From a bacterium (lineage in GTDB: Bacteria > Bdellovibrionota > Bdellovibrionia > Bdellovibrionales > Bdellovibrionaceae): a DNA stretch of 64,000 bases. The DNA is taken from contig JAIELP010000008.1 of assembly GCA_019752925.1 (NCBI GenBank), positions 101,223 to 165,222 on the forward strand. Direction: 5' to 3'. Below the pieces are notes generated by a model, which saw nothing but the letters and a program-made list of their open reading frames with translations, was not told where the DNA came from and made no database searches. Positions within the stretch are counted from its first letter, which is position 1. Every line of letters begins with the position of its first letter. A program made the translations under genes and the position numbers. This document shows, in pieces, positions 2,876 through 40,648 of this stretch.

Positions 2876-4870
2876 TTACCAAATTTTAACGCGTTCTGAA
2901 TCTGGTAAAGTCATTTTATCGCCAGCTTTACAATTAAAGGCTTCAGCGAATGCTTTTTGATGTTTAACCTGTTCGTTGATGCGCGCCCAGCCTAATGCGT
3001 GAGGATCTGTTTTTAGTTGAGCTTCTTCAGCTTTGGGGCGAGCTACCGTACACCATAAACGACCGTACGCAATGAATAATTTTTTCTGGTCTTCGACTTT
3101 GGCTTTACCGTCTGGGAATGCGGCTTGATATGCAAATGTTAAACCTACTAAGTCACCAATGTTTTCACCTAAAGTTAAGGTGCCATTATGGCCAGCCTTA
3201 TTAAACTGATCAATCATTTTACGGCCACGCTCTGAAAACTCTTTTAAGTCTTTCATGCTCATCCATTGCTGTAACCTACCTGCTTCATCATAACGTGAAC
3301 CTTGATCGTCGATACCATGACCTAATTCGTGACCAATGACTGCACCTACCGCACCTAGGTTTTCAATAATATCACCTTCAGCATTAAAGAATGGGTATTG
3401 TAAAATACCCATTGGCATTACGAACTTATTAGCAGATGGATCATAATAAGCATTAACAGTTAATGGTCCCATTCCCCACGCTACAAGATTTGCACCTTCT
3501 TTAAAGCTTTTGATTGTTTTAGCCAATGCCGCCTGATTGTAAATTTCGCTATTACGGAATCTGTCAGTAGAGGAATATTTTTGAACCGGAATAAAATCCC
3601 ACTCTTTTGCATTTTCAGGTTTAACTAAATAGAGTTTTGCTTTTTCCATTTTAAGGATGGCTTTAGCTTTAGTTTCGGGTTCTAACCAAGTATTGTTTTT
3701 AACTCCACGGATAATGCTTTCGCGTATTTTTTGAGCCACTAATTTAAACTTAGCTGTAGGAAAATCAGGAAATAATTTTTTAATAAGCAATTGGTCTAAC
3801 TCTTTAGGGAAGGTGTACATCACTTTGCGGGTACAACGCTCATGACGTTCTGATCTGGTTAAAGAACCACCTAAATATTTATTGTTGAATGCAAATTGTT
3901 TATTAAAATACTCAGGGTTGCTGTCATCAATAACTCCGCTACCAAAACTGTAAATATAAAAATCTTTAAGCACCTGAAGATTCTCAGCAGTTAAAGACTT
4001 ATTATAAAACTCCAACGCTTCCGGCACAGGGTTTTGCACTAAAATACTTTTTGGAGCTTTTGCTACTAACGCCGCAACATCGATATTAGGATACTTAGCC
4101 AAAAAATCAGCTTGTTTTTCCTGTCGCTTCTCAGACCATCTTTGTCTTCTTACTTCGGGATATGGGTAGGCTTTAACAAAACTTTTTTCAAACGCAATAA
4201 GCTTATCGGCTTTTTCATTTAACTGAGAATGTGTTAATTCCGGCTGAGCAATTTTAAAGAAGTCGATGATTAATTTTTTATAATCTAGCATTAACTCTTT
4301 ATTTTCGTAATAAGTATGCTCAGGTAGGTTCATTAATTCCGTCATGATATAGATATCGTTAATTTTCGGATTGTCCTGATTCGAACCACCATCAAAACTT
4401 AAAAAACTCGGACGTCCCGCTTTAATCTGAGCGATTTGAAATTTAGCAAATTCCTGAGGAGTCTTGATAGACGAAACTTCATCTACAATTCTTTTTAAAG
4501 CTTTTTTTTCATTTTCAGCGCCGGCTTTGTCGTTCATGCAAGCCATGTAGCTGTCTTTAATTTGCAAAGAACGTGAATCAAGCTTTTTCTGCTCACCTAT
4601 TTTAGCAAAAAAGTTTTTCTTGGCTTCTAAAATTCTTTCTGATGAGTCACTGAATGAAAATGTGTGGCGGCTTCGGTCGTCTCTTAATTTAAATGATTTT
4701 TCAACTTCGTCACAAACGTATTTATGGAAGTTTTCACAAGGGTTTACTTTTGAACTTAATGGAAACTCACGTTTAGCGGGAATTTCAGAACTTGGCTGAG
4801 GTGTATCCGCAGCAAAGGCTCCGACAGATGTTAATAAAACAGCAAATAACAAAACTGAAAACTTATTCAT
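2876..4870 (-). CDS. Secreted M13 family (neprilysin/PepO-like) zinc metallopeptidase
   Basis: Signal peptide; PCENFHKYVC, VNAYY, HELGH (HExxH), GENIGD and DPH motifs. Confidence 0.93.
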   Translation of the reverse strand: MNKFSVLLFAVLLTSVGAFAADTPQPSSEIPAKREFPLSSKVNPCENFHKYVCDEVEKSFKLRDDRSRHTFSFSDSSERILEAKKNFFAKIGEQKKLDSRSLQIKDSYMACMNDKAGAENEKKALKRIVDEVSSIKTPQEFAKFQIAQIKAGRPSFLSFDGGSNQDNPKINDIYIMTELMNLPEHTYYENKELMLDYKKLIIDFFKIAQPELTHSQLNEKADKLIAFEKSFVKAYPYPEVRRQRWSEKRQEKQADFLAKYPNIDVAALVAKAPKSILVQNPVPEALEFYNKSLTAENLQVLKDFYIYSFGSGVIDDSNPEYFNKQFAFNNKYLGGSLTRSERHERCTRKVMYTFPKELDQLLIKKLFPDFPTAKFKLVAQKIRESIIRGVKNNTWLEPETKAKAILKMEKAKLYLVKPENAKEWDFIPVQKYSSTDRFRNSEIYNQAALAKTIKSFKEGANLVAWGMGPLTVNAYYDPSANKFVMPMGILQYPFFNAEGDIIENLGAVGAVIGHELGHGIDDQGSRYDEAGRLQQWMSMKDLKEFSERGRKMIDQFNKAGHNGTLTLGENIGDLVGLTFAYQAAFPDGKAKVEDQKKLFIAYGRLWCTVARPKAEEAQLKTDPHALGWARINEQVKHQKAFAEAFNCKAGDKMTLPDSERVKIW

Positions 4871-5024
4871 AAATCCTCTTGAGGTTGATAATTAGAATTG
4901 CAGGATTTAATGATCGTCTAAATATTGGTTATAAACAAAGTAGTTTTTTCAAAAAAATTACATTTTTTGCCTACCATTACGCATTAAATTGCTCATTAAC
5001 CCTGTTTTGCTATATAAGTAGGCT

Positions 5025-5753
5025 ATGAAAATAGTCATACCAGCTCTTTTATTAGTATCTTCTATTGCTCTGGCAGAAATCGACTACGATGCCCGCTACT
5101 CTTACGGTCAGCCAGTGGCATGTGGAAATAAGGGAGTCTCTGTAAGACCTTTTCAGCCACCTTTGATTGATGTTCCTTCCGGCGAGCGCGGCGCTGTGCA
5201 AGCGCTTGGAATCAGAAAATACTCAGCTTATTTAAACGAACAAACCTCTATGTTGCAGATCAATATCGGCATGTCGATGAGTTCTTGCGTGAAAGATCCA
5301 GAAACAGGCAACGAATACTTTTTCAGCGAAGAAGCCGACCCGCAAGACTATTTATTGTTGATGGCCTATCATAGCATTTTTTCTGATGCACGATTCAGAC
5401 AAAGCTTTACGCAAATGAATCACGTTAATATGGATACAGGAGCTGTTAGATCTATTTCAACGGCTGTTATGAATATTCCTTTGCACGAATTTCTAGGCAA
5501 AAAAATAATGAGAAAATTTGAACAAGGCGAGAGTGTTACTGTGAAAATGTCGGCTCATTATGCTTTCAAAAATTTTGAATCACCTAAACGCGCCTATTTT
5601 CCGTATTTCAGCCCTACAACAGCCCGCATGTTAGGAAACCCGGTCAAGCCTTATGAAGAAGACCTAAAAGGAGCTTACCTTTACGGAGCCAGTCACGGTC
5701 TCAGTATAACAATTAAAAAAGATGCTGGCGTTATTGAATTCAAACGCAATTAA
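5025..5753 (+). CDS. Hypothetical secreted protein
   Basis: 242-aa ORF with signal peptide and two Cys; no recognised motif. Confidence 0.7.
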   Translation: MKIVIPALLLVSSIALAEIDYDARYSYGQPVACGNKGVSVRPFQPPLIDVPSGERGAVQALGIRKYSAYLNEQTSMLQINIGMSMSSCVKDPETGNEYFFSEEADPQDYLLLMAYHSIFSDARFRQSFTQMNHVNMDTGAVRSISTAVMNIPLHEFLGKKIMRKFEQGESVTVKMSAHYAFKNFESPKRAYFPYFSPTTARMLGNPVKPYEEDLKGAYLYGASHGLSITIKKDAGVIEFKRN

Positions 5754-6184
5754 TTAAGATTTTTCTGAAATTTTTTACCAAGAAAAAGTTGTTCATTTTT
5801 AGATAAAACAATAGCCGCTTGTTTTAACAAAGCCACTTTTTCTTGTGAGTTATTCTGAATCAGACGCATCAGAGTTTTAAGTTTTGCAATAACTTGAGCG
5901 TCCCATTTGTTTTTGTAATCAAGCTCTTCCAGATCGAAAATCAGAATCTGTGCTATTGCATGGCCTTCTATTACATCGAAGGCCAGTTCCTGACAAATAT
6001 CGCTTTGCTGCAGAACACCGAGTAAGCTCTTTTCTTCAGCCTTCATACATGCAATCAACATATCAACAAAGAAAATCATCTGCTCCTGTTTATGTAGGGG
6101 ATCGACATTGGGGTTTTGTAATAATGCTATACTCCTACTAAGTAAAAGATGCTGCTTTTTAATGAGAGCAATGACTGTTTTCAT
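5750..6184 (-). CDS. Degenerate hemerythrin-like four-helix protein
   Basis: Helical pattern with QH, (C)MKAEE and EGH at hemerythrin-like spacing; several metal ligands replaced. Start set at ATG 6184. Confidence 0.5.
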   Translation of the reverse strand: MKTVIALIKKQHLLLSRSIALLQNPNVDPLHKQEQMIFFVDMLIACMKAEEKSLLGVLQQSDICQELAFDVIEGHAIAQILIFDLEELDYKNKWDAQVIAKLKTLMRLIQNNSQEKVALLKQAAIVLSKNEQLFLGKKFQKNLN

Positions 6185-6241
6185 TTTATAAAATAAAAGC
6201 GCGTTTCCGCGCATTTATTCCTGGAAATATCAGTCACAAAT

Positions 6242-6784
6242 TTAGAACCAATATTTAATGGCGGCATTTACGGCCAAAGCATCTGGCTCAACGCCATCTA
6301 TAAAAAGGTATTTTGCATTAGCCCCTAGAGTCCACATTCCTTCGTCGGTAACAGGAATATCAAATCCTACAATCGGACCTCCAGCAAAATAGCTGTTGTC
6401 GTCACGGATAACACTACCAAGACCAACTCCAGCGTAACTATTACGAATAATAGTAGTTGAACCACCGAAATTGTAATTACCTTTTGCCAAAACTGCTGTT
6501 CTTGATGATTTGCCTCCTGTTGTATCAGGAGCATCCGACCAAGTAGCTTCTAAACCTAAGCCAAAAGGAATATAAGGCTGATATCCAATATCAACACCAT
6601 ACTCACCAGTATTGCCGTCACTATTATTAGTGTTAACAACACCACCCATCAAACCTATATGAGGTTGGCTTTCTGCGCGCGTATAAATTGGACGTGCATC
6701 GGGAAAAGTTTTCGATTGCTGAGCATTGACTTCAAATGCCAGAAGTAAAGTAACCGCTACGTATAAAAATTTTTTTTTCTTCAT
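6242..6784 (-). CDS. Outer-membrane beta-barrel protein (small, OmpA/OmpW-like barrel)
   Basis: Signal peptide, alternating beta strands, C-terminal KYWF aromatic BAM signal. Confidence 0.8.
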   Translation of the reverse strand: MKKKKFLYVAVTLLLAFEVNAQQSKTFPDARPIYTRAESQPHIGLMGGVVNTNNSDGNTGEYGVDIGYQPYIPFGLGLEATWSDAPDTTGGKSSRTAVLAKGNYNFGGSTTIIRNSYAGVGLGSVIRDDNSYFAGGPIVGFDIPVTDEGMWTLGANAKYLFIDGVEPDALAVNAAIKYWF

Positions 6785-8731: not shown

Positions 8732-10150
8732 ATGACGAAATCAGTTCTATTATTATCGATGACTCTCGCATCAACTTTATTGATCTCAGCCTGCACCCAC
8801 AGCCCGAGTACACCGATATCTGAACAACGCGTACCTGCCAGTGAAGAGTTAAGCCAAGCAGAAAAAAATGAACTATCCGATGTGGTTTTGAAAAAAAACA
8901 GTAATCGCTTAAAGCAACTTTTTGTTAAAACACGTATAGCGCAAACAATGATTGCCTCATTTGACGCACGTATTGCTAAAATTAACAAAGCCGAAGATAT
9001 GGATAAGTTATTAGAGTCCAATCTATATTGTAAAGTTTGGCAGGTGCGCACGGCTTCTGAACACACAGATGAGCAATTACTTCATGTAATGAAATCGGCT
9101 AAAGCTAACAATCGCGCTGACTGGGTGTACTCTGAAATTTCAGCTTTCGCAAAACAAGAACTTCTTAGCGAAGCCGCAATGTTAAATATGTTCCGCGGTT
9201 TTATTAATGACGAACAAGAAATTTGCGGCCGTGCAAATTGCATGGCGGAAGATGTTTCAAAATTGAGAAACATCCGAGTTAATCCTTTAAACCAAGCAGC
9301 TATGTCTAAATTTATGAAAGACAATCGTGGCAGAATTGCAGCTTACGCAAATATTACAACTAATGATTTAAAACCAGGCGCCTGTTACGAACAAAATCCT
9401 AACAGAAAACCACAAGCCGCGGGTTTTGACTGGGTTAACCGCAACTGGGTTGGCTCAGTATTACCTGTAGGTAGCTTTGTTATCACATACGATGACGGCC
9501 CTCATGTTGTTCACACTCAAGCTATTGCGGATTCTTGGGAACAAGCAGGCTTAGCTAAGCCTGCTTTCTTCTGGTTACGTAAAAACGCAAGTGCTTTACC
9601 TGACGTTGTTCAAAAATTAAATAACCAAGGTTACTCAATCGGTTCTCACTCTGAAAGACATGCGGACTTAGGAAATATAGCTAAGTCCACTTCAGTAGAA
9701 GGCTTAAATGGTACTAATAAACAAGCCTTAGCTTCAGAATTAAAAGGCTTATCTGCAAGTCAATTCAGTGCGTGGAAAGAGCAAACTCTTAACCGTGAAA
9801 TCAACCAGTCCGCAGACGATCTTTCAACTATCATCGGCAAACCATTACGTTACTTCCGCTTACCCTACGGTTCTGGTGTACGTAACGATTTAATCGGCGC
9901 ACGCTTTGAAGCTAAAAATTTAGATCACTTCTTCTGGAGAGTAGACTCTTTAGACTGGCAGGATAAAAATCCTCAATCTATTTTTGAACGCGTAACAACT
10001 CAAATGAAGGCGGTACAAAAAGGTATTATCTTATTCCACGATATTCATCCACAATCAGCTGCCGCTTCAAAATTATTAGTGGAGTACTTCCGCAATAATC
10101 CGAGCCTCAAGGCTGTACCTATGAAAGACCTTCCTGGTTTAAAGGACTAA
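8732..10150 (+). CDS. Lipoprotein polysaccharide/peptidoglycan deacetylase (CE4/NodB) with N-terminal helical domain
   Basis: Lipobox LISAC; CE4 motifs TYDDGP, HSERH, RLPYG, DSLDW and LFHD all intact. Confidence 0.9.
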   Translation: MTKSVLLLSMTLASTLLISACTHSPSTPISEQRVPASEELSQAEKNELSDVVLKKNSNRLKQLFVKTRIAQTMIASFDARIAKINKAEDMDKLLESNLYCKVWQVRTASEHTDEQLLHVMKSAKANNRADWVYSEISAFAKQELLSEAAMLNMFRGFINDEQEICGRANCMAEDVSKLRNIRVNPLNQAAMSKFMKDNRGRIAAYANITTNDLKPGACYEQNPNRKPQAAGFDWVNRNWVGSVLPVGSFVITYDDGPHVVHTQAIADSWEQAGLAKPAFFWLRKNASALPDVVQKLNNQGYSIGSHSERHADLGNIAKSTSVEGLNGTNKQALASELKGLSASQFSAWKEQTLNREINQSADDLSTIIGKPLRYFRLPYGSGVRNDLIGARFEAKNLDHFFWRVDSLDWQDKNPQSIFERVTTQMKAVQKGIILFHDIHPQSAAASKLLVEYFRNNPSLKAVPMKDLPGLKD

Positions 10151-34716: not shown

Positions 34717-34734
34717 GTTCATATATGTATGAAC
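34717..34734. promoter_or_regulatory. Putative GbsR/MarR operator GTTCATA-N4-TATGAAC upstream of the lipocalin operon
   Basis: 14/14 arm match to the core of the 38052-38099 palindrome; 55 nt upstream of ATG 34790. Confidence 0.7.
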
Positions 34735-34789: not shown

Positions 34790-35314
34790 ATGAAAATTTT
34801 AAAAGCCCTCGTTGCCAGTATAATTTTAAGCTCATGCGCTTCTATAAACAAGAGTTATGCCGATGAAACCGACCCTAGCGTTGTAAGCCAAATTGATTTA
34901 CAAAAATACTCCGGCAAATGGTACGAAATTGCACGTAAGCCGACGTTTTTTCAGCGTAACTGTATTCGCTCTACCGCCGAATACCAAGTTATAGACGACT
35001 CTTCTGTTTCTGTTTACAACGTATGCTACAAGGCCGACAACAGCACCAGCGATATTAAAGGTACGGCTAAAATTGTGGACCGCAATGTACCGGCTAAACT
35101 TAAGGTTAAATTTAATATTTTTGCTCAGGGTGAATACTGGGTTACTGAACTTGACCCTAATTACCAATGGGCCGTGGTGAGCGCGTCTAAAAAATCCTCA
35201 TTATTTATTTTAGCCCGCGAAGCTCCTATGAAACCTGAGTTATTGAAATCGATACTGGATACTTTAAAAGCTAAAAACTTTGACTTAACAGATTTAGTTT
35301 ACGACCAATACTAA
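34790..35314 (+). CDS. blc: Bacterial lipocalin lipoprotein (Blc-like)
   Basis: Lipobox LSSC; YSGKWYEIAR, YWV...DPNYQWAVV, LFILAR. Confidence 0.92.
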   Translation: MKILKALVASIILSSCASINKSYADETDPSVVSQIDLQKYSGKWYEIARKPTFFQRNCIRSTAEYQVIDDSSVSVYNVCYKADNSTSDIKGTAKIVDRNVPAKLKVKFNIFAQGEYWVTELDPNYQWAVVSASKKSSLFILAREAPMKPELLKSILDTLKAKNFDLTDLVYDQY

Positions 35315-36027
35315 TGAATTTTTTTGCAAGCCTACTTATCTTAATTCAACTGACCTCTGCCCGCGCTGAGTTCAGCCCCTATAACGCTCAGGTTTCTGAT
35401 CTGGATGCAGATCAGAAAAAAATATTATTTGATATCAAGGCCGACAAAAAAATTATTGATGAAAATCTTTATCTGGATGTTAGCGTTTTAGACAAAAACT
35501 CAGAAATAGCTATACGAGAAAGCGCCATCGTTAATAAAAACAGCGCAGAAATTATAGAATACAAAATCACCAATAATCAAACCCGCGAGCGCGGTGTTGT
35601 TACAGTCAAAGATAAAATTATAATTGAGTACACAGACCCTGAAAATAAAACCAAAACTAAAGAATTTGCTAAACCTTCCCGCTTAGTGGCTCCTGCAAAT
35701 TTTGAGCTTTGGATTATACGTAACTTTGAGCTCCTAAAAAAAGAAAAAAGTCTCAGTGTTGATTTCCTGATCTGGGACCGACTAGAAACCATTAAATTTA
35801 AAGTAACTTATATGGGTGAACAATCCCTGGATGGCGAGAATAGCCAACTTTTCAAGATGAATATTGATAACTTTTTACTGGCCGCTTTTATTTCGCCTAT
35901 TAAAATCTGGTATAAGGCCGACATGAGCGAAATCAAACTTTATGAAGGACGCGTGGCCGTACGCAAAAAAAACAGCTCCGGCAAATATGACGACCTGGAC
36001 GGACGAGTCACCTACACCTACAAATAA
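35314..36027 (+). CDS. Hypothetical exported beta-rich protein (DUF3108-like)
   Basis: TAATG overlap with lipocalin; signal peptide; beta-strand pattern ending IKIWY...YEGR. Confidence 0.6.
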   Translation: MNFFASLLILIQLTSARAEFSPYNAQVSDLDADQKKILFDIKADKKIIDENLYLDVSVLDKNSEIAIRESAIVNKNSAEIIEYKITNNQTRERGVVTVKDKIIIEYTDPENKTKTKEFAKPSRLVAPANFELWIIRNFELLKKEKSLSVDFLIWDRLETIKFKVTYMGEQSLDGENSQLFKMNIDNFLLAAFISPIKIWYKADMSEIKLYEGRVAVRKKNSSGKYDDLDGRVTYTYK

Positions 36028-36036
36028 ACCTAGGAA

Positions 36037-37533
36037 TCATTTTTTAACTACCTGTTGAAATAATGAAATCGCTTTTACTTTTTGAGTGGCGTGATCCACC
36101 ATAGGTCGCGGATACATACTTCCACGGGCTCCGTCAGGGTCATGAATCGTTTTGGCCGGAATAGTTTTGAGTTCAGGAACATAGGTTTTAATATATTCAG
36201 CTGCTGGATCAAACTTTTCAGATTGAAGCCATGGATTGAATATACGGAAATAAGGCTGAGGGTCGCATCCGGTTGAGGCCGCCCATTGCCAGCCACCATT
36301 ATTAGGAGCCAGATCTCCGTCTAAAAGCATTTTCATGAAATAGTTTTCACCCCAGCGCCAATCAATTAATAAATCTTTTACCAAAAATGAGGCCACTATC
36401 ATGCGTACACGATTGTGCATCCAACCCGTTTGATTGAGCTGCCTCATTCCAGCATCTACAATCGGAAAACCCGTTTGCCCAGCACACCAACGCTCAAAAT
36501 AACTTTTATTATTTTCCCACTTTAAGTTTATATACTGAGGTAAAAAGGCCTGCTTTTCACATTCAGATTTGTGATACATGATCGAATAGTAAAACTCGCG
36601 CCATGCAATTTCTTTCACATATTGAGTAGAGTTATCTTTTGTGGCCCACTGTTTACTTTGCAGTTTCAGCGTGGCTAAAATCTGAGATGAAACCAAACTT
36701 CCGTTTTTTTGATACATTGAAAGCTGCGACGTGCCGTCGATGTAAGGCAAGTCCCGCTGTTCTTTGTAGTTTTCAACCTGTTGTTTAAAATTCAGCAAGC
36801 GTTCATAGGCTGTTTTAAACCCGGCCTCCGGAATTTTAATACTAACGGATTTATTATTTTCATTTTCAAATTTGGCTAAACTATCTGTGTAAGGTAAATT
36901 TTTAAAATCAGACCACTTTAAAGAAAAAATCTGATCTAAATTGTTTTGTTTTAAACGTTTATAGTACTGCTCGATATTGGCCTGCGCTGCCACGCGCTTT
37001 TGGCCTTCCGCTGTGGCCAGCTTTTCAAACCAGCGCCGCGCATAGGGCGAATAAATCTGATAAAAACTTTGATCGTCTTTTAATATTTCATGGGGCTCAA
37101 ATAAAACATGGTCTCTTTCGGAATATGTTTTAACTCCATAGGAATTAAAAATATTTATAAGATTCTCATCGCGGCTTCTGGCAAAAGGTTCATAATCTTG
37201 ACCAAAGCTGATGAGTTCCGGCAGACTTATATTATTACTTTTAAAGTGCTCAAATAAACGCGTAAACGCCACATGGGGTTGCTCGTCCACAACCAGCAGA
37301 TCTCCACCTTGCACTTGCATTTCTTTTTTTAGCTCTTTCAATGTATTTATAAAAAAAGCAAATCGATTGTGGGAAAAATCAGGCCTGCTTAAAAAAGCCG
37401 AATCAAAACAAAAAAGACCTAGCACTTTTTGATCGCAGGATTTCCAGCTATAACGGAGATTGGCATTGCCGGCAATTCTCAGATCGCGTCTGAACCAATG
37501 TATGCCGTACTTGGTTTTTGAATTGAGCTCCAT
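36037..37533 (-). CDS. phrB: Deoxyribodipyrimidine photolyase (class I)
   Basis: HWFRRDLRI, TSQLS, WREFY, TGFPIVDAGMRQL, GWMHNRVRM, NNGGWQW, RIFNP. Confidence 0.95.
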   Translation of the reverse strand: MELNSKTKYGIHWFRRDLRIAGNANLRYSWKSCDQKVLGLFCFDSAFLSRPDFSHNRFAFFINTLKELKKEMQVQGGDLLVVDEQPHVAFTRLFEHFKSNNISLPELISFGQDYEPFARSRDENLINIFNSYGVKTYSERDHVLFEPHEILKDDQSFYQIYSPYARRWFEKLATAEGQKRVAAQANIEQYYKRLKQNNLDQIFSLKWSDFKNLPYTDSLAKFENENNKSVSIKIPEAGFKTAYERLLNFKQQVENYKEQRDLPYIDGTSQLSMYQKNGSLVSSQILATLKLQSKQWATKDNSTQYVKEIAWREFYYSIMYHKSECEKQAFLPQYINLKWENNKSYFERWCAGQTGFPIVDAGMRQLNQTGWMHNRVRMIVASFLVKDLLIDWRWGENYFMKMLLDGDLAPNNGGWQWAASTGCDPQPYFRIFNPWLQSEKFDPAAEYIKTYVPELKTIPAKTIHDPDGARGSMYPRPMVDHATQKVKAISLFQQVVKK

Positions 37534-38063
37534 CAGTTACCATTACTTTTAGTATGAGGGCCCACCAACTCACCCAGCTCAGAAAAATCACCTGCATGAC
37601 ACAAAATTGTAATAAATGAATTGGCCTGATTGATCATTTCGCCAAGTGACTCCAGACGCTGTTGGTTCAGAGAGCTCTTTGATCCTGAGTTTTGAAGTTC
37701 TGAAAATTTTGAGAACTCCTGACTTACTTTTTGCAACATCACGAACTCTCTGTTTTCTAAAACATTTCTGATGACCGACATAAAATCGGGATTGGCTTCA
37801 TAAAGCTTTGTTCTGGTATCGCCGGACTTAACTTGAAATATGACCTTGTGCTTGATCAACTCTTTTAAAGCGGGGCTAACAAGTGCTTTAGACACACCTA
37901 TGTTTTTAACTAAATCAGCACCAGACAAAGGCTCATTTGAAAGATAAAGCTGCGACCATATTTGCCCGTGAATACGGCGAAAGCCCCAGTAGTGTATAAA
38001 GTCGCCAATAGCCCGAGACAGGGCTTTAAACTGCTTATTTTTGAGATCTGCTTGTTTTTTCAT
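37533..38063 (-). CDS. GbsR/MarR-family winged-helix transcriptional regulator
   Basis: WGFRRIHGQIWSQLYLSNEPLS...GVSKALVSPALKEL; TGATG overlap with phrB; start revised to ATG 38063 (MKKQADL). Confidence 0.85.
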   Translation of the reverse strand: MKKQADLKNKQFKALSRAIGDFIHYWGFRRIHGQIWSQLYLSNEPLSGADLVKNIGVSKALVSPALKELIKHKVIFQVKSGDTRTKLYEANPDFMSVIRNVLENREFVMLQKVSQEFSKFSELQNSGSKSSLNQQRLESLGEMINQANSFITILCHAGDFSELGELVGPHTKSNGN

Positions 38064-38099
38064 ATAGTTCATAGTACTATGAACTATATGAAAAAACAA
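38052..38099. promoter_or_regulatory. Perfect 48-bp palindrome: symmetric bidirectional sigma70-like promoter and operator overlapping two start codons
   Basis: TTGTTTTTTCATATAGTTCATAGT|ACTATGAACTATATGAAAAAACAA; each strand reads TTGTTT-17 nt-TACTAT-7 nt-ATG. Confidence 0.8.
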
Positions 38100-38501
38100 T
38101 ACGAACTTAAAGTTTTTTACGATGGTTTATGTAGAGTTTGTTCAGCGGAAATCGAATACTACAAAAAACAAAGTGGTAGCGCTAAAATAAATTTTGTTGA
38201 TATTTTTTCGCCGGACTTTAACGCCGAGTCCGAAAATTTAGATCCAGCCAAAATTCACAAACACTTGCACGCAAAAAAAGAAGATGGAAGCGTTCTTGTA
38301 GGAGTGGATGTTTTCATTGAAATCTGGAAAAATCTCGATCGCTTCAAAAAAATATCAGTTCTCGCTGAAAATAAAATAATTAAAACCACCCTAAAGTGGG
38401 GCTATAAACTATTTGCAGATATACGGCCCTATCTGCCACGCCGTAAGGCTGCGGATTGCACCGAAAGCCCTTATTGCACAGCCCACAATCCAAATAGCTA
38501 A
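38088..38501 (+). CDS. DUF393/DCC1-like thiol-disulfide oxidoreductase
   Basis: FYDGLCRVC (CxxC), LHAKK, GVDVFIEIW, RPYL; start revised to ATG 38088 (MKKQYEL). Confidence 0.88.
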   Translation: MKKQYELKVFYDGLCRVCSAEIEYYKKQSGSAKINFVDIFSPDFNAESENLDPAKIHKHLHAKKEDGSVLVGVDVFIEIWKNLDRFKKISVLAENKIIKTTLKWGYKLFADIRPYLPRRKAADCTESPYCTAHNPNS

Positions 38502-40585
38502 CCTATTCCCGCCAGTGCTGTGGGACCATGAGCTTTTAACAGTTCTTCTTTAAGAGACTGATTTTCTTTTTTATTTAGTTTTGGATCTCTGTGCAAAATT
38601 TCGAAGGCCGCATCTCTTGCTGCTTTTAAAGTTTCGAAATCTCTTACTAAGTTGGCCATTTTAAATCCCGGAAGTCCTGATTGTTTTGAACCCATGAATT
38701 CGCCCGGGCCGCGGATTTCTAAATCGAACTCAGCCACCTTAAAACCATCACTGGTTTTTTCCATAAACTCCACTCGCTCGCGAGTTTCTTGAGAAACAGC
38801 ATAGCCCATAATCATAATACAAAAACTTTTATGCTGACCACGACCTACTCGGCCACGTAACTGGTGTAATTGCGACAAACCGAATCTTTCTGAATGCTCA
38901 ATCATCATAATCGTAGAATTAGGAACGTCTACACCTACTTCAATTACCGTGGTTGAAACCAAGACATCGATTTTATGTTCACGGAACTGAGTCATGACTT
39001 CGTCTTTTTCGGCAGGCTTCATTTTTCCGTGCAACAAACCAAACCGCACTTTCGGATATTGCTTTTGAAGTTTGTCGTACTCTTCGGTGGCATTTTTTAA
39101 ATCAATCTTTTCGCTTTCTTCTACTAACGGATACACCACATAGGCTTGGCGGCCCCGGGCTATATGATCCATCATAAAATCAAGAGCCTGTGCTCGTTTT
39201 GATTCAGTAATAACCCGGGTTTGAATGGGCGTACGGCCCTCTGGCATTTCGTTAATAATTGAAACATCTAGGTCGCCATAAACAGTCATAGCCAAGGTTC
39301 GCGGAATAGGAGTTGCTGTCATAATTAAAAAATGTGGCGATGTACCTTTGTTCTTTAATAGCCCTCGCTGTTCAACACCGAATCTGTGTTGCTCATCGAT
39401 GATAACTAAACCTAAATTCTGAAATTGCACCCAATCTTCGATTAAAGCATGAGTGCCGATTAAAAAATGAATTTCTCCCGCCTGTAGTTTTTCTTGAATT
39501 TCTTTGCGCTCTTTGGTTTTACTTTTTCCTGTCAATAAACCAATTTTTACACCTAGAGGTTCTAAAATTTTTTGCGCGTTTTTAAAGTGCTGTTCAGCTA
39601 AAATTTCAGTTGGAGCCATTAAACAAGTTTGAAAGCCTGAATCAAAAGCTTTTAATGCCGACATAAAACTAACCAAGGTTTTACCTGACCCTACATCCCC
39701 TTGCACCAAGCGGTTCATAGGTTTACCGGATTCCAGATCTTTTTTGATATCGTAGTAAGATCCCATTTGAGCGTTTGTTAATTTAAAAGGTAAAACTTTA
39801 ACTAATTTTTCCAGGCTTTTTTCTAAAGATGAAAACACTAAGCCCTTTTCATTTTTTAAACCGGATTTTTTTGACGCCAAGTACAGCTCTAACCAAAAAA
39901 ATTCTTCAAATATAATTCTTCGATGGGAGTCCGATTTAAATTCGTTATAGGCGGCTGCATTTTCAGGCTCTGGTTTATGAATACGGTATAGAGCTTCATC
40001 TACGCCGATCAGTTTTTGTTTGCGAACCAACTCAAGCGGTAGTTTTTCAGCAGGCCATTCTTTAATTTGCTCAAAGCTCGATTGAATCATTTTTTCAATT
40101 TTAGCAGAGCTTAAACCTTCGGTTTCTACGTAAATAGGAATTAAAGCATCTTTTAAATCTTCGTCAGGGTCGATATCTCGCAAATCCGGATGATGAAACT
40201 CTAATCGTCCGCGATAGTTGGTTACTTTACCAACAACACGCACCTCTTTACCTTGCTGAAATCTTTCAAAGTAGCCTTTGTACGGCGTGCGAAAATATTT
40301 GCAGCGGATTTGTCCCGAGTTATCGCGCACCATTATGTCGTAAATTTTGCGTGTGGATTTCCCCATAGCATAAGAAGAAACACCCATCACTTTGGCTTTA
40401 AGGCTCACCACGTCGTTTTCTTTAAGGCTTGCAATGTTGCGTGCTGCTCTACGATCTTCATAGGCACGAGGATAGTTTTGCAAAAGGTCTCTAACCGTTT
40501 TAATTCCGTGGCGCGAGAACAAAGCACCAAGCTTTGGTCCGACTCCTTTTACATATTGAATTTCGGTCTCTAGACGAAGGGCCAT
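38498..40585 (-). CDS. recG: ATP-dependent DNA helicase RecG
   Basis: YPRAYEDR, QGDVGSGKT, DEQHRFG, SQLHQLRGRVGRG, RGPGE. Confidence 0.97.
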   Translation of the reverse strand: MALRLETEIQYVKGVGPKLGALFSRHGIKTVRDLLQNYPRAYEDRRAARNIASLKENDVVSLKAKVMGVSSYAMGKSTRKIYDIMVRDNSGQIRCKYFRTPYKGYFERFQQGKEVRVVGKVTNYRGRLEFHHPDLRDIDPDEDLKDALIPIYVETEGLSSAKIEKMIQSSFEQIKEWPAEKLPLELVRKQKLIGVDEALYRIHKPEPENAAAYNEFKSDSHRRIIFEEFFWLELYLASKKSGLKNEKGLVFSSLEKSLEKLVKVLPFKLTNAQMGSYYDIKKDLESGKPMNRLVQGDVGSGKTLVSFMSALKAFDSGFQTCLMAPTEILAEQHFKNAQKILEPLGVKIGLLTGKSKTKERKEIQEKLQAGEIHFLIGTHALIEDWVQFQNLGLVIIDEQHRFGVEQRGLLKNKGTSPHFLIMTATPIPRTLAMTVYGDLDVSIINEMPEGRTPIQTRVITESKRAQALDFMMDHIARGRQAYVVYPLVEESEKIDLKNATEEYDKLQKQYPKVRFGLLHGKMKPAEKDEVMTQFREHKIDVLVSTTVIEVGVDVPNSTIMMIEHSERFGLSQLHQLRGRVGRGQHKSFCIMIMGYAVSQETRERVEFMEKTSDGFKVAEFDLEIRGPGEFMGSKQSGLPGFKMANLVRDFETLKAARDAAFEILHRDPKLNKKENQSLKEELLKAHGPTALAGIG

Positions 40586-40648
40586 GACTTCATTTGAAGC
40601 CAAAAAAAAAGCTTCGTCAAACAGTCAAAACAGATACACTTGTAAAAG

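Follow-up and report, generated by a model that had tools for sequence, protein, structure and literature searches.

Symmetric bidirectional promoters of the sigma70 type have been described in Escherichia coli and other prokaryotes. It has been shown that the -10 elements on the opposite strands of such promoters overlap, and that their key bases pair (Warman et al., bioRxiv 10.1101/2020.01.31.928960; PMC12825309). The divergent starts are mostly 18 bp apart, distances of 10 and 23 bp being also common (bioRxiv 10.1101/2020.01.31.928960; PMC12825309). Furthermore, polymerases compete for the two orientations, of which only one is occupied at a time; a local repressor can act on both directions, and PacrA/acrR is an example of a promoter controlled in this manner (Grainger lab, Nucleic Acids Research 2026, PMC12825309). 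Here, we present an analysis of a perfect palindrome of 48 bp located at positions 38052-38099 of a 64,000-nucleotide stretch of DNA (the window) from a member of the Bdellovibrionaceae (GenBank assembly GCA_019752925.1, contig JAIELP010000008.1, positions 101,223 to 165,222). The palindrome holds the start codons of two divergent genes, one encoding a regulator of the GbsR/MJ223 type and the other a DCC1-like thiol-disulfide oxidoreductase. We consider it probable, mainly on comparative grounds, that this element is a phylum-conserved, autoregulated, symmetric bidirectional promoter-operator of this uncharacterised regulator, from which two leaderless mRNAs probably start. An earlier prediction made from the letters of the window (the original prediction) had interpreted the element in the same way, and this interpretation is supported by the comparative evidence and the coarse RNA evidence presented below.

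Like the symmetric bidirectional promoters mentioned above, the two -10 hexamers in the window have their first TA in common, which corresponds to the "23-bp" configuration. However, the E. coli cases are mostly pseudo-symmetric and symmetric in the -10 only, whereas here both -35 boxes are symmetric too. Also unlike the E. coli cases, the element doubles as a presumed operator, its predicted starts coincide with both start codons, and it forms a phylum-conserved unit that is reused at several loci per genome.

Another related system is the AcuR operon of Rhodobacter sphaeroides, in which the regulator gene comes first, its mRNA is leaderless and lacks a Shine-Dalgarno (SD) sequence, the start ATG is conserved among homologs, and the operator is an inverted repeat of the form 8 bp-N6-8 bp that overlaps the promoter (PMC3017554). 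The operon in the window, which consists of the regulator and a photolyase gene, has the same layout. In contrast to the regulator studied here, however, AcuR belongs to the TetR family, and its promoter is unidirectional and asymmetric and does not serve a second, divergent leaderless gene. Repressors are also made from leaderless mRNAs in the cases of lambda PRM-cI and Tn1721 tetR/tetA. In these two systems, palindromic operators overlap back-to-back promoters and the repressor is autoregulated. They differ from the element described here in that they have several separate operators and non-symmetric promoters, and that only the repressor message is leaderless.

Finally, the GbsR family (GbsR, OpuAR, OpcR and CydE/CioR) comprises repressors that form homodimers and react to small ligands, and their genes are often located beside their targets (PMC6207618, PMC11837568). 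The regulator in the window belongs to the same fold class and can be modelled on MJ223 (PDB 1KU9). Unlike the described members, it scores far below the named equivalogs, it has no osmoprotectant or cytochrome bd context, and its regulon is a different one. What is new with respect to all these systems is the combination of a fully symmetric promoter, including both -35 boxes, with a coincident operator and probably two leaderless starts in a reusable cassette that is found throughout the phylum. Also new is that each -35 lies inside the first codons of the other gene, and that the cassette serves an uncharacterised regulator family.

The palindrome and the elements within it

The sequence at 38052-38099 equals its own reverse complement (TTGTTTTTTCATATAGTTCATAGT directly followed by ACTATGAACTATATGAAAAAACAA), and has no spacer. 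Its arms are 24 nt long, with the dyad between 38075 and 38076, versus 12 nt for the runner-up among the spacer-less palindromes of the window. In 100 dinucleotide-preserving shuffles the longest arm was 8.5 nt on average and 13 nt at most. Outside the 48 bp, a weaker symmetry (86%) reaches 38040-38111. On the plus strand, TTGTTT (38052-57) is followed after 17 nt by TACTAT (38075-80) and, after a further 7 nt, by A38088, the first base of an ATG; the minus strand mirrors this arrangement. The perfect palindrome, the divergent ATGs at 38088 (+) and 38063 (-) that open two proteins starting with MKKQ, and the spacing of the hexamers on each strand had all been reported in the original prediction, and we read them in the sequence and its open reading frames (ORFs) as stated there. 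The features of the element and of the two genes that start within it are the following.

38052..38099, no strand: the whole putative bidirectional promoter-operator, delimited by the sequence and by the same ±24 boundaries in the family position matrix and in close relatives.
38061..38090, no strand: conserved core at -15..+15, CATATnGTTCATAsT to the left and AsTATGAACnATATG to the right of the dyad, presumed operator of the adjoining regulator (matrix of 76 sites; co-occurrence in 77 of 81 loci).
38067-38072 and 38079-38084, within the core, no strand: half-sites GTTCAT and ATGAAC, invariant in the position matrix.
38075..38080, plus strand: predicted -10 (TACTAT) of the DCC1-like gene, from the sequence and from TAsTAT being kept at -1..+5 in both directions.
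38071..38076, minus strand: predicted -10 (TACTAT) of the regulator gene, from the sequence and the position matrix; the TA at 38075-38076 is common to both -10s.
38052..38057, plus strand: predicted -35 (TTGTTT) of the DCC gene, within regulator codons 2-4 (K-K-Q); TTG/CAA is kept at ±22-24, coding or not.
38094..38099, minus strand: predicted -35 (TTGTTT) of the regulator gene, within DCC codons 2-4 (K-K-Q), with the same conservation at ±22-24.
37533..38063, minus strand: regulator of the GbsR/MJ223 type, MarR superfamily, 176 amino acids, ATG at 38063 (MKKQ), predicted leaderless (ORF, profile and fold searches).
38088..38501, plus strand: DCC1-like (DUF393) thiol-disulfide oxidoreductase, 137 amino acids, ATG at 38088 (MKKQ), predicted leaderless (Pfam PF04134, E value 6e-21).

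The second-longest palindrome of the window, at 9543-9566, is a perfect one of 24 bp (AAGCAGGCTTAG followed by CTAAGCCTGCTT). It lies inside an ORF of 472 amino acids (8732..10150, plus strand), and its sequence is unrelated to the operator.

Conservation of the element among the Bdellovibrionota

A profile of regulator homologs yielded 80 loci from species-representative genomes, nearly all of them Bdellovibrionota and one of them the cultured Bdellovibrio bacteriovorus (locus L064); with the window, this makes 81 loci. These were searched for the core GTTCAT-N6-ATGAAC, allowing up to two mismatches, and 76 unique sites were aligned on their dyads, with the regulator side taken as positive. 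The core is present at the start of the regulator gene, between the same kinds of genes, in 77 of the 81 loci. An alignment of orthologous intergenic regions had been suggested as a check together with the original prediction, and its outcome agrees with it in this respect.

The anatomy of the 76 sites is simple. Between -15 and +15, the sites have a high information content, which then drops, and the only outer peaks are at -24..-22 (T in 61, T in 55 and G in 46 sites) and at +22..+24 (C or A in 37 each, A in 67 and A in 70 sites), past which, beyond ±25, conservation is flat. The outer TTG and CAA are located exactly 17 bp from the TAsTAT hexamers, which have their TA at the dyad in common. 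The key bases of these hexamers are highly conserved (T(-1) in 72, A(+1) in 74 and T(+5) in all 76 sites), giving overlapping -10 hexamers of the form TAnnnT on opposite strands. The outer boundaries of the family conservation, at ±24, are also the limits of the perfect palindrome in the window. Perfect symmetry itself is dispensable, since only two of the 76 sites are perfect over the 24 positions.

The outer peaks might reflect either a promoter signal or the codons in which they lie. Sides of the element that are non-coding are of two types: either a leader of 25-100 nt, which carries an SD of its own, precedes the regulator gene, or GGAGGTCAAnATG precedes a divergent gene whose start lies further out. 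CAA is found on these sides at exactly +22..+24 in 11 of 17 and in 22 of 50 cases, against a background of 0.021, a 20-30 fold enrichment. Because the TTG/CAA persists where the side is a non-coding leader, it is a signal in the DNA, that is, of the promoter, and not a codon effect. The symmetric -35/17/-10 geometry of the original prediction is therefore corroborated by the family, in which these two triplets are the only conserved positions outside the core.

Start codons and N-termini

The regulator ORF starts at the codon at +13 in 60 of the 77 loci (57 ATG, 2 GTG and 1 TTG). The divergent gene does so at -13 in 26 of the 77, always with ATG, and both genes start at ±13 in 24. The window is an extreme case, as both of its genes start at ±13 and both continue with AAA-AAA-CAA. 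On each strand of the window there is a second in-frame ATG 9 nt upstream (38079 on the plus and 38072 on the minus strand), which the original prediction did not mention and whose use would result in proteins starting with MNYMKKQ. In five loci, however, an in-frame stop codon (TAA) separates this proximal ATG from the distal one. Because of these five loci we take the distal ATG, that of MKKQ in the window, as the start, in line with the original prediction, and reject the proximal ATGs as starts for the family. Gene callers often over-extend the ORFs through the palindrome (MNYM... or MVHSTMNYM...), to the extent that the calls abut in locus L081; the element thus explains a systematic mis-annotation of start codons.

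Some features of the sites are in keeping with leaderless messages. Position 13 is a purine in 39 of 50 leader-type sides (A in 31), as would be expected for an initiating nucleotide. No GGAG-like motif is present in the 20 nt upstream of the starts (TTCATAGTACTATGAACTAT); this stretch is the operator, and so an SD sequence is not possible there. This agrees with the absence of an SD at either start noted before, although the criterion is a weak one in this organism, as we discuss below. Both mRNAs are probably leaderless, a prediction derived from the spacing to the -10 alone, the A of the ATG being 8 nt past the hexamer.

The N-termini of the regulators are limited to a few types (MKSK in 18 cases, MKKQ in 10, and MKNQ, MEKQ, etc.), and the residues that follow diverge freely. 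Codons 2-4 of each gene contain the -35 of the other gene and its T-rich spacer, which would force the two proteins to start with M-K-(K/S)-(Q/K). The idea that the geometry of the promoter constrains the protein N-termini is hence borne out by the conservation of MKKQ/MKSK next to diverging residues. It would provide a natural case of promoter signals that dictate protein sequence, in which unrelated proteins in about 80 species start with MKKQ or MKSK.

The regulator and a model for its switch

The regulator consists of a winged helix-turn-helix head and long C-terminal dimerisation helices, and is related to MJ223. This is shown by its profile, which matches PDB 1KU9 (MJ223) with an E value of 1.6e-17, and by its AlphaFold2 model (predicted local distance difference test score 86.8), for which 1KU9 is the top Foldseek match (E value 2.8e-7, template-modelling scores 0.59/0.67). 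The curated thresholds of MarR_2 (18.3 bits versus 27), CudC (30 versus 218) and MsvR (26 versus 220) are not reached, and the motif GDFIxYWGFRRIHGxIW is specific to the subfamily. Within the MarR superfamily, it represents a distant and unnamed subfamily of the MJ223/GbsR branch. No opu or gbs gene occurs among the neighbours of the sites (DCC, OsmC, photolyase, SDR, lipocalin, etc.), and in the literature we found no prior description of this regulator or of the motif, nor transcription start site (TSS) data for it in Bdellovibrio.

We propose the following model. Two sigma70-type promoters would point outwards, their -10s (TAsTAT) overlapping by the central TA, and each would have its -35 (TTGnnn) 17 bp off, where the opposite arm ends. 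As the promoters overlap, RNA polymerase could be seated in only one orientation at a time. Initiation would take place some 7-8 nt past each -10, on the first base of the start codons at 38088 (+) and 38063 (-), and would leave both mRNAs with little or no leader. A dimer of the adjoining regulator would have its operator in the inner 30 bp (GTTCAT-N6-ATGAAC with the flanking ATAT); when bound, it would cover both -10s and both start points and thereby turn off both directions, including its own synthesis. The regulon would be small and stress-flavoured: the DCC thiol oxidoreductase, the photolyase and, via a second operator, a lipocalin in the window, and OsmC, SDR, DUF2805, FAD oxidase and UbiB-type kinase proteins in other species. 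The palindrome and its conservation, the places of the start codons, the TTG at its fixed position and the additional sites are observed, whereas the exact TSSs, the identity of the binding protein, the repression and the inducing signal are the parts of this model that we infer.

If the model holds, a complete repressible switch for two genes, made up of a pair of promoters, one operator and a translation start for each gene, would fit into 48 bp. To the symmetric bidirectional promoters described before, this would add a form that is symmetric throughout, conserved in the phylum and probably leaderless on both sides. For synthetic biology, the element would also be a candidate for a minimal repressible promoter that works in both directions. 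Furthermore, it would constitute the cis-element, and the genes around it the first regulon (thiol oxidoreductase, OsmC, photolyase, lipocalin), for a GbsR-like family that is widespread in the predatory Bdellovibrionota.

Copies of the core and the presumed regulon

The gene on the other side of the regulator-proximal site varies. The divergent partner is a DCC gene in 39 cases, an OsmC gene in 15, an SDR/DUF1731-SRPBCC gene in three and a DUF2805 gene in two, with single cases of a flavin adenine dinucleotide (FAD) amine-oxidase-like, a lipocalin and a membrane protein gene. The site accompanies the regulator irrespective of the gene on the other side, which is the classical signature of autoregulation. 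Exact extra cores are located a few kb from the regulator gene in seven loci (L012, L016, L048, L057, L058, L059 and L064). Their TTGnnn-17-TAsTAT arrangement is bidirectional, and the genes that they drive are mostly of the DCC type; altogether, there are 54 cases of a site next to a DCC gene. The presence of extra cores before other stress-type genes marks the core as an operator. The original prediction had proposed the palindromic core as the operator of the regulator; its co-occurrence with the regulator gene in 77 of the 81 loci and its recurrence before other genes argue for this role, and it is from them that we infer binding by the regulator.

B. bacteriovorus L064 contains two complete cassettes 1.3 kb apart (3507-6665), one between the OsmC and regulator genes, and the other between a DCC gene, followed by a DUF2805 gene, and a gene for a UbiB/ABC1-type kinase. 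This cultured species thus offers a homologous, experimentally tractable copy.

In the window, the features probably belonging to the regulon, other than the two divergent genes, are these.

34717..34734, no strand: second exact core (GTTCATATATGTATGAAC), 56 nt upstream of the lipocalin gene, putative operator without symmetric promoter geometry (core scan of the window).
34790..36027, plus strand: lipocalin gene (34790..35314) and an ORF of 237 amino acids (35314..36027), which follow the second core and form a probable second target operon.
36037..37533, minus strand: photolyase, in an operon with the regulator; the same order is found in loci L001 and L081-L083.

The 237-amino-acid ORF had no Pfam or NCBIfam match. 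In one other locus, too, a lipocalin gene lies next to a regulator-proximal site. At the second core, a possible TTAGCC-17-TATGTT promoter would start at the centre of the core. The stop codon of the regulator gene and the start codon of the photolyase gene overlap as TGATG (37531-37535), an arrangement which suggests that the photolyase may be translationally coupled to the regulator, itself probably poorly translated from a leaderless message. A universal link with photolyase was rejected, as this gene is within reach in only 8 of the 81 loci and directly follows the regulator gene only in the window, L001 and L081-L083.

Motif scans of these loci contain a trap. The coding motif GTGCATnnnnnTTATGAAC of DCC genes (L012, L016, L051, L053 and L072) mimics the core at one mismatch. 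The one-mismatch "sites" inside DCC genes (GTGCAT...TTATGAAC) were rejected as operators, being a conserved coding motif.

Transcripts around the dyads

Evidence on transcription comes from Logan contigs of B. bacteriovorus L064, in which the dyads lie between 3985 and 3986 and between 5318 and 5319. Five runs from two studies are RNA-like, with gene-wise depth and gaps at promoters, and none of them covers 3960-4011. The contig on the OsmC side ends at 3959, where it runs into Illumina adapter sequence (X28, X29), and the one on the regulator side starts at 4012/4013 (X28, X29, X31). At the second operator, the contig on the DCC side ends at 5292, also into adapter (X30). The ends are therefore symmetric around the dyad, at -27 and +27/28. 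These RNA-like contigs exclude far-upstream starts and read-through in those libraries, and give bounds for the TSSs that are compatible with leaderless messages but not precise.

All three ends are 14-15 nt short of ±13. The end at 5292 falls in the start codon of the DCC gene (5293-5291), downstream of its GGAG, and because it lies inside this start codon the contig ends at ±27 must be truncated 5' ends. Second-strand synthesis by RNase H and DNA polymerase I loses 5'-terminal sequence, which is compatible with the 14-15-nt offset.

Points against the model and alternative explanations

Several observations weigh against a symmetric promoter with leaderless starts that is controlled by the adjoining regulator. 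Firstly, the hexamers of the window are modest (TTGTTT matches 3/6 and TACTAT 4/6) and fail a consensus scanner, which instead gives TTGAGA-16-TATAGT on the plus strand. Secondly, the contig ends in L064 are at ±27 and not at ±13, and it is only the general loss of 5' sequence in second-strand synthesis that accounts for the offset. Thirdly, the absence of an SD is not diagnostic, since only 15 of the 44 long ORFs of the window have a clear one. Furthermore, the second core of the window lacks the promoter geometry, the link between regulator and operator is one of co-occurrence, and no residue of the DNA-reading head tracks the variable operator position ±10, the top column being a codon that overlaps the site. 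Finally, the dyad is crossed in two very small runs that are labelled as RNA, X17 in the window (37998-38240) and X23 in L064 (3902-4096). Each of these runs holds merely a piece of 200-240 nt centred on the palindrome, which could be DNA carry-over, the result of a snap-back amplification bias, or real RNA across the dyad.

One alternative is that the palindrome is an operator only, transcription starting at the dyad from TTGAGA-16-TATAGT (plus strand, 38041-38068) and from a weaker mirror image, TTAAGT-16-TATAGT, on the minus strand. This would predict leaders of 12 nt without SD, or a near-leaderless use of the proximal ATGs (MNYMKKQ). The plus-strand promoter is the sole match of the scanner in the region, with 10 of 12 positions, its TATnGT at -13..-8 also lies within the conserved core, and contig ends at ±27 are equally compatible with starts at the dyad and at ±13. 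However, the mirror -35 matches in merely 3 of 6 positions, and positions -35..-30 are unconserved in the 76 sites, whereas ±22-24 are conserved. The CAA/TTG at ±22-24 on non-coding sides is left unexplained by this alternative, and the stop codons in five loci make a start at the proximal ATG impossible there. For these reasons we consider it unlikely that the element is an operator only.

Another explanation is that the palindrome is bound by a different, global factor, with the GbsR-like protein as a mere neighbour. It would fit with the presence of the core at several promoters per genome and with the lack of a regulator residue that tracks the variable position of the operator. Yet in 77 of 81 loci across the phylum the core lies where the regulator gene itself starts, next to any kind of partner (DCC, OsmC, SDR, DUF2805 and others), as is classical for an autoregulated local factor, and, to our knowledge, the motif is unlike the LexA, Fur or CIRCE boxes. 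We therefore regard a global factor as quite improbable.

The symmetry of the element itself might be taken to indicate that it is mainly a nucleic-acid structure, either a DNA cruciform or hairpin, extruded by supercoiling, that hides the -10s, or a hairpin formed by an RNA that is transcribed across it. Folded as a single strand, the palindrome gives a very stable hairpin (-19.8 kcal/mol, z = -10.7). Across the 76 loci, position ±10 covaries symmetrically, the two arms being complementary in 76% of the cases where 38% are expected and all four pairs (A, T, C and G) being represented, and a relative whose regulator is 77% identical has a double change with respect to the window exactly at ±10 (window 38066/38085). 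Molecules across the dyad in the two small RNA-labelled runs would also be in agreement with it. On the other hand, most sites are imperfect, their mean symmetry being 17.0 of 24 versus 15.8 for arms paired between different loci, and there is no covariation at ±2-4. Position ±2 is anti-symmetric (24% versus 41% expected; window 38074/38077): AGTAGT/ACTACT is preferred over the palindromic AGTACT (ScaI-like) and ACTAGT (SpeI-like), and the window has the rarer AGTACT. Moreover, the -10, the -35 and the half-sites account for every one of the conserved positions, no transcript crosses the palindrome in the five RNA-like runs, Rfam gave no family match but merely sub-threshold microRNA-hairpin noise, and mutation by template switching can yield covariation without function. 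Taking this together, a mainly structural role seems to us very unlikely.

A related idea is that the arms of the promoter-operator evolve in concert as a hairpin-forming unit. We put this forward tentatively, as a doubtful but interesting possibility, to which the double changes at ±10, a position that no residue of the DNA-reading head tracks, the stability of the hairpin and the escape of the central positions ±2-4, the would-be loop, may point. A further pointer is given by L022 (about 3050-3115) and L023 (about 3938-4003), which contain near-perfect palindromes of 64 bp with arms of 32 nt and one mismatch. Their symmetry extends to about ±33, past the -35 boxes, and the regulator and the divergent protein have MKSKES in common in their first 6-7 codons. 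This long symmetry suggests copying from arm to arm. If the arms do evolve in concert, extrusion of a cruciform or hairpin might be part of the switch, as a supercoiling-sensing, self-occluding promoter; or else template-switch repair in a functional promoter would keep rewriting the N-termini of two proteins.

The last alternative is that the palindrome is an assembly fold-back artefact or a product of chance; a fold-back had been one of the concerns raised with the original prediction. The organism of the window is known solely from freshwater and drinking-water metagenomes (DNA runs). The Logan unitigs of source-like runs cover 37700-38081 and 38070-38450, with a unitig of 48 nt that is exactly 38052-38099, so that they stop precisely at the palindrome; this is to be expected because a k=31 graph must stop at a palindrome of 48 bp. 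A strain variant that is about 15% diverged spans the palindrome in one contig and is slightly asymmetric, differing inside it at 38074 and 38077 only. In the relative with the 77%-identical regulator, contigs of 8-11 kb from three samples cross the element and keep the gene order RecG, DCC, regulator, photolyase, and then the unknown ORF and lipocalin. In close relatives, in general, the 48 bp are nearly unchanged and the flanks about 15% diverged. Given these crossing contigs, the same architecture in 77 independent assemblies among the 81 loci, and the fact that no shuffle exceeded an arm of 13, we dismiss a fold-back or chance origin as practically negligible. A phage-borne or mobile repeat was rejected too, as viral contigs gave no match and the window holds merely two copies.

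Other observations near the locus

Within recG there is a sub-threshold match to the Rfam family Ysr141 (39512-39764), which seems to be spurious. No terminator-like site was found between the 3' ends of the DCC and recG genes; these ends overlap by 4 bp (38498-38501), the DCC gene being on the plus strand and recG (38498..40603) converging on it from the minus strand.

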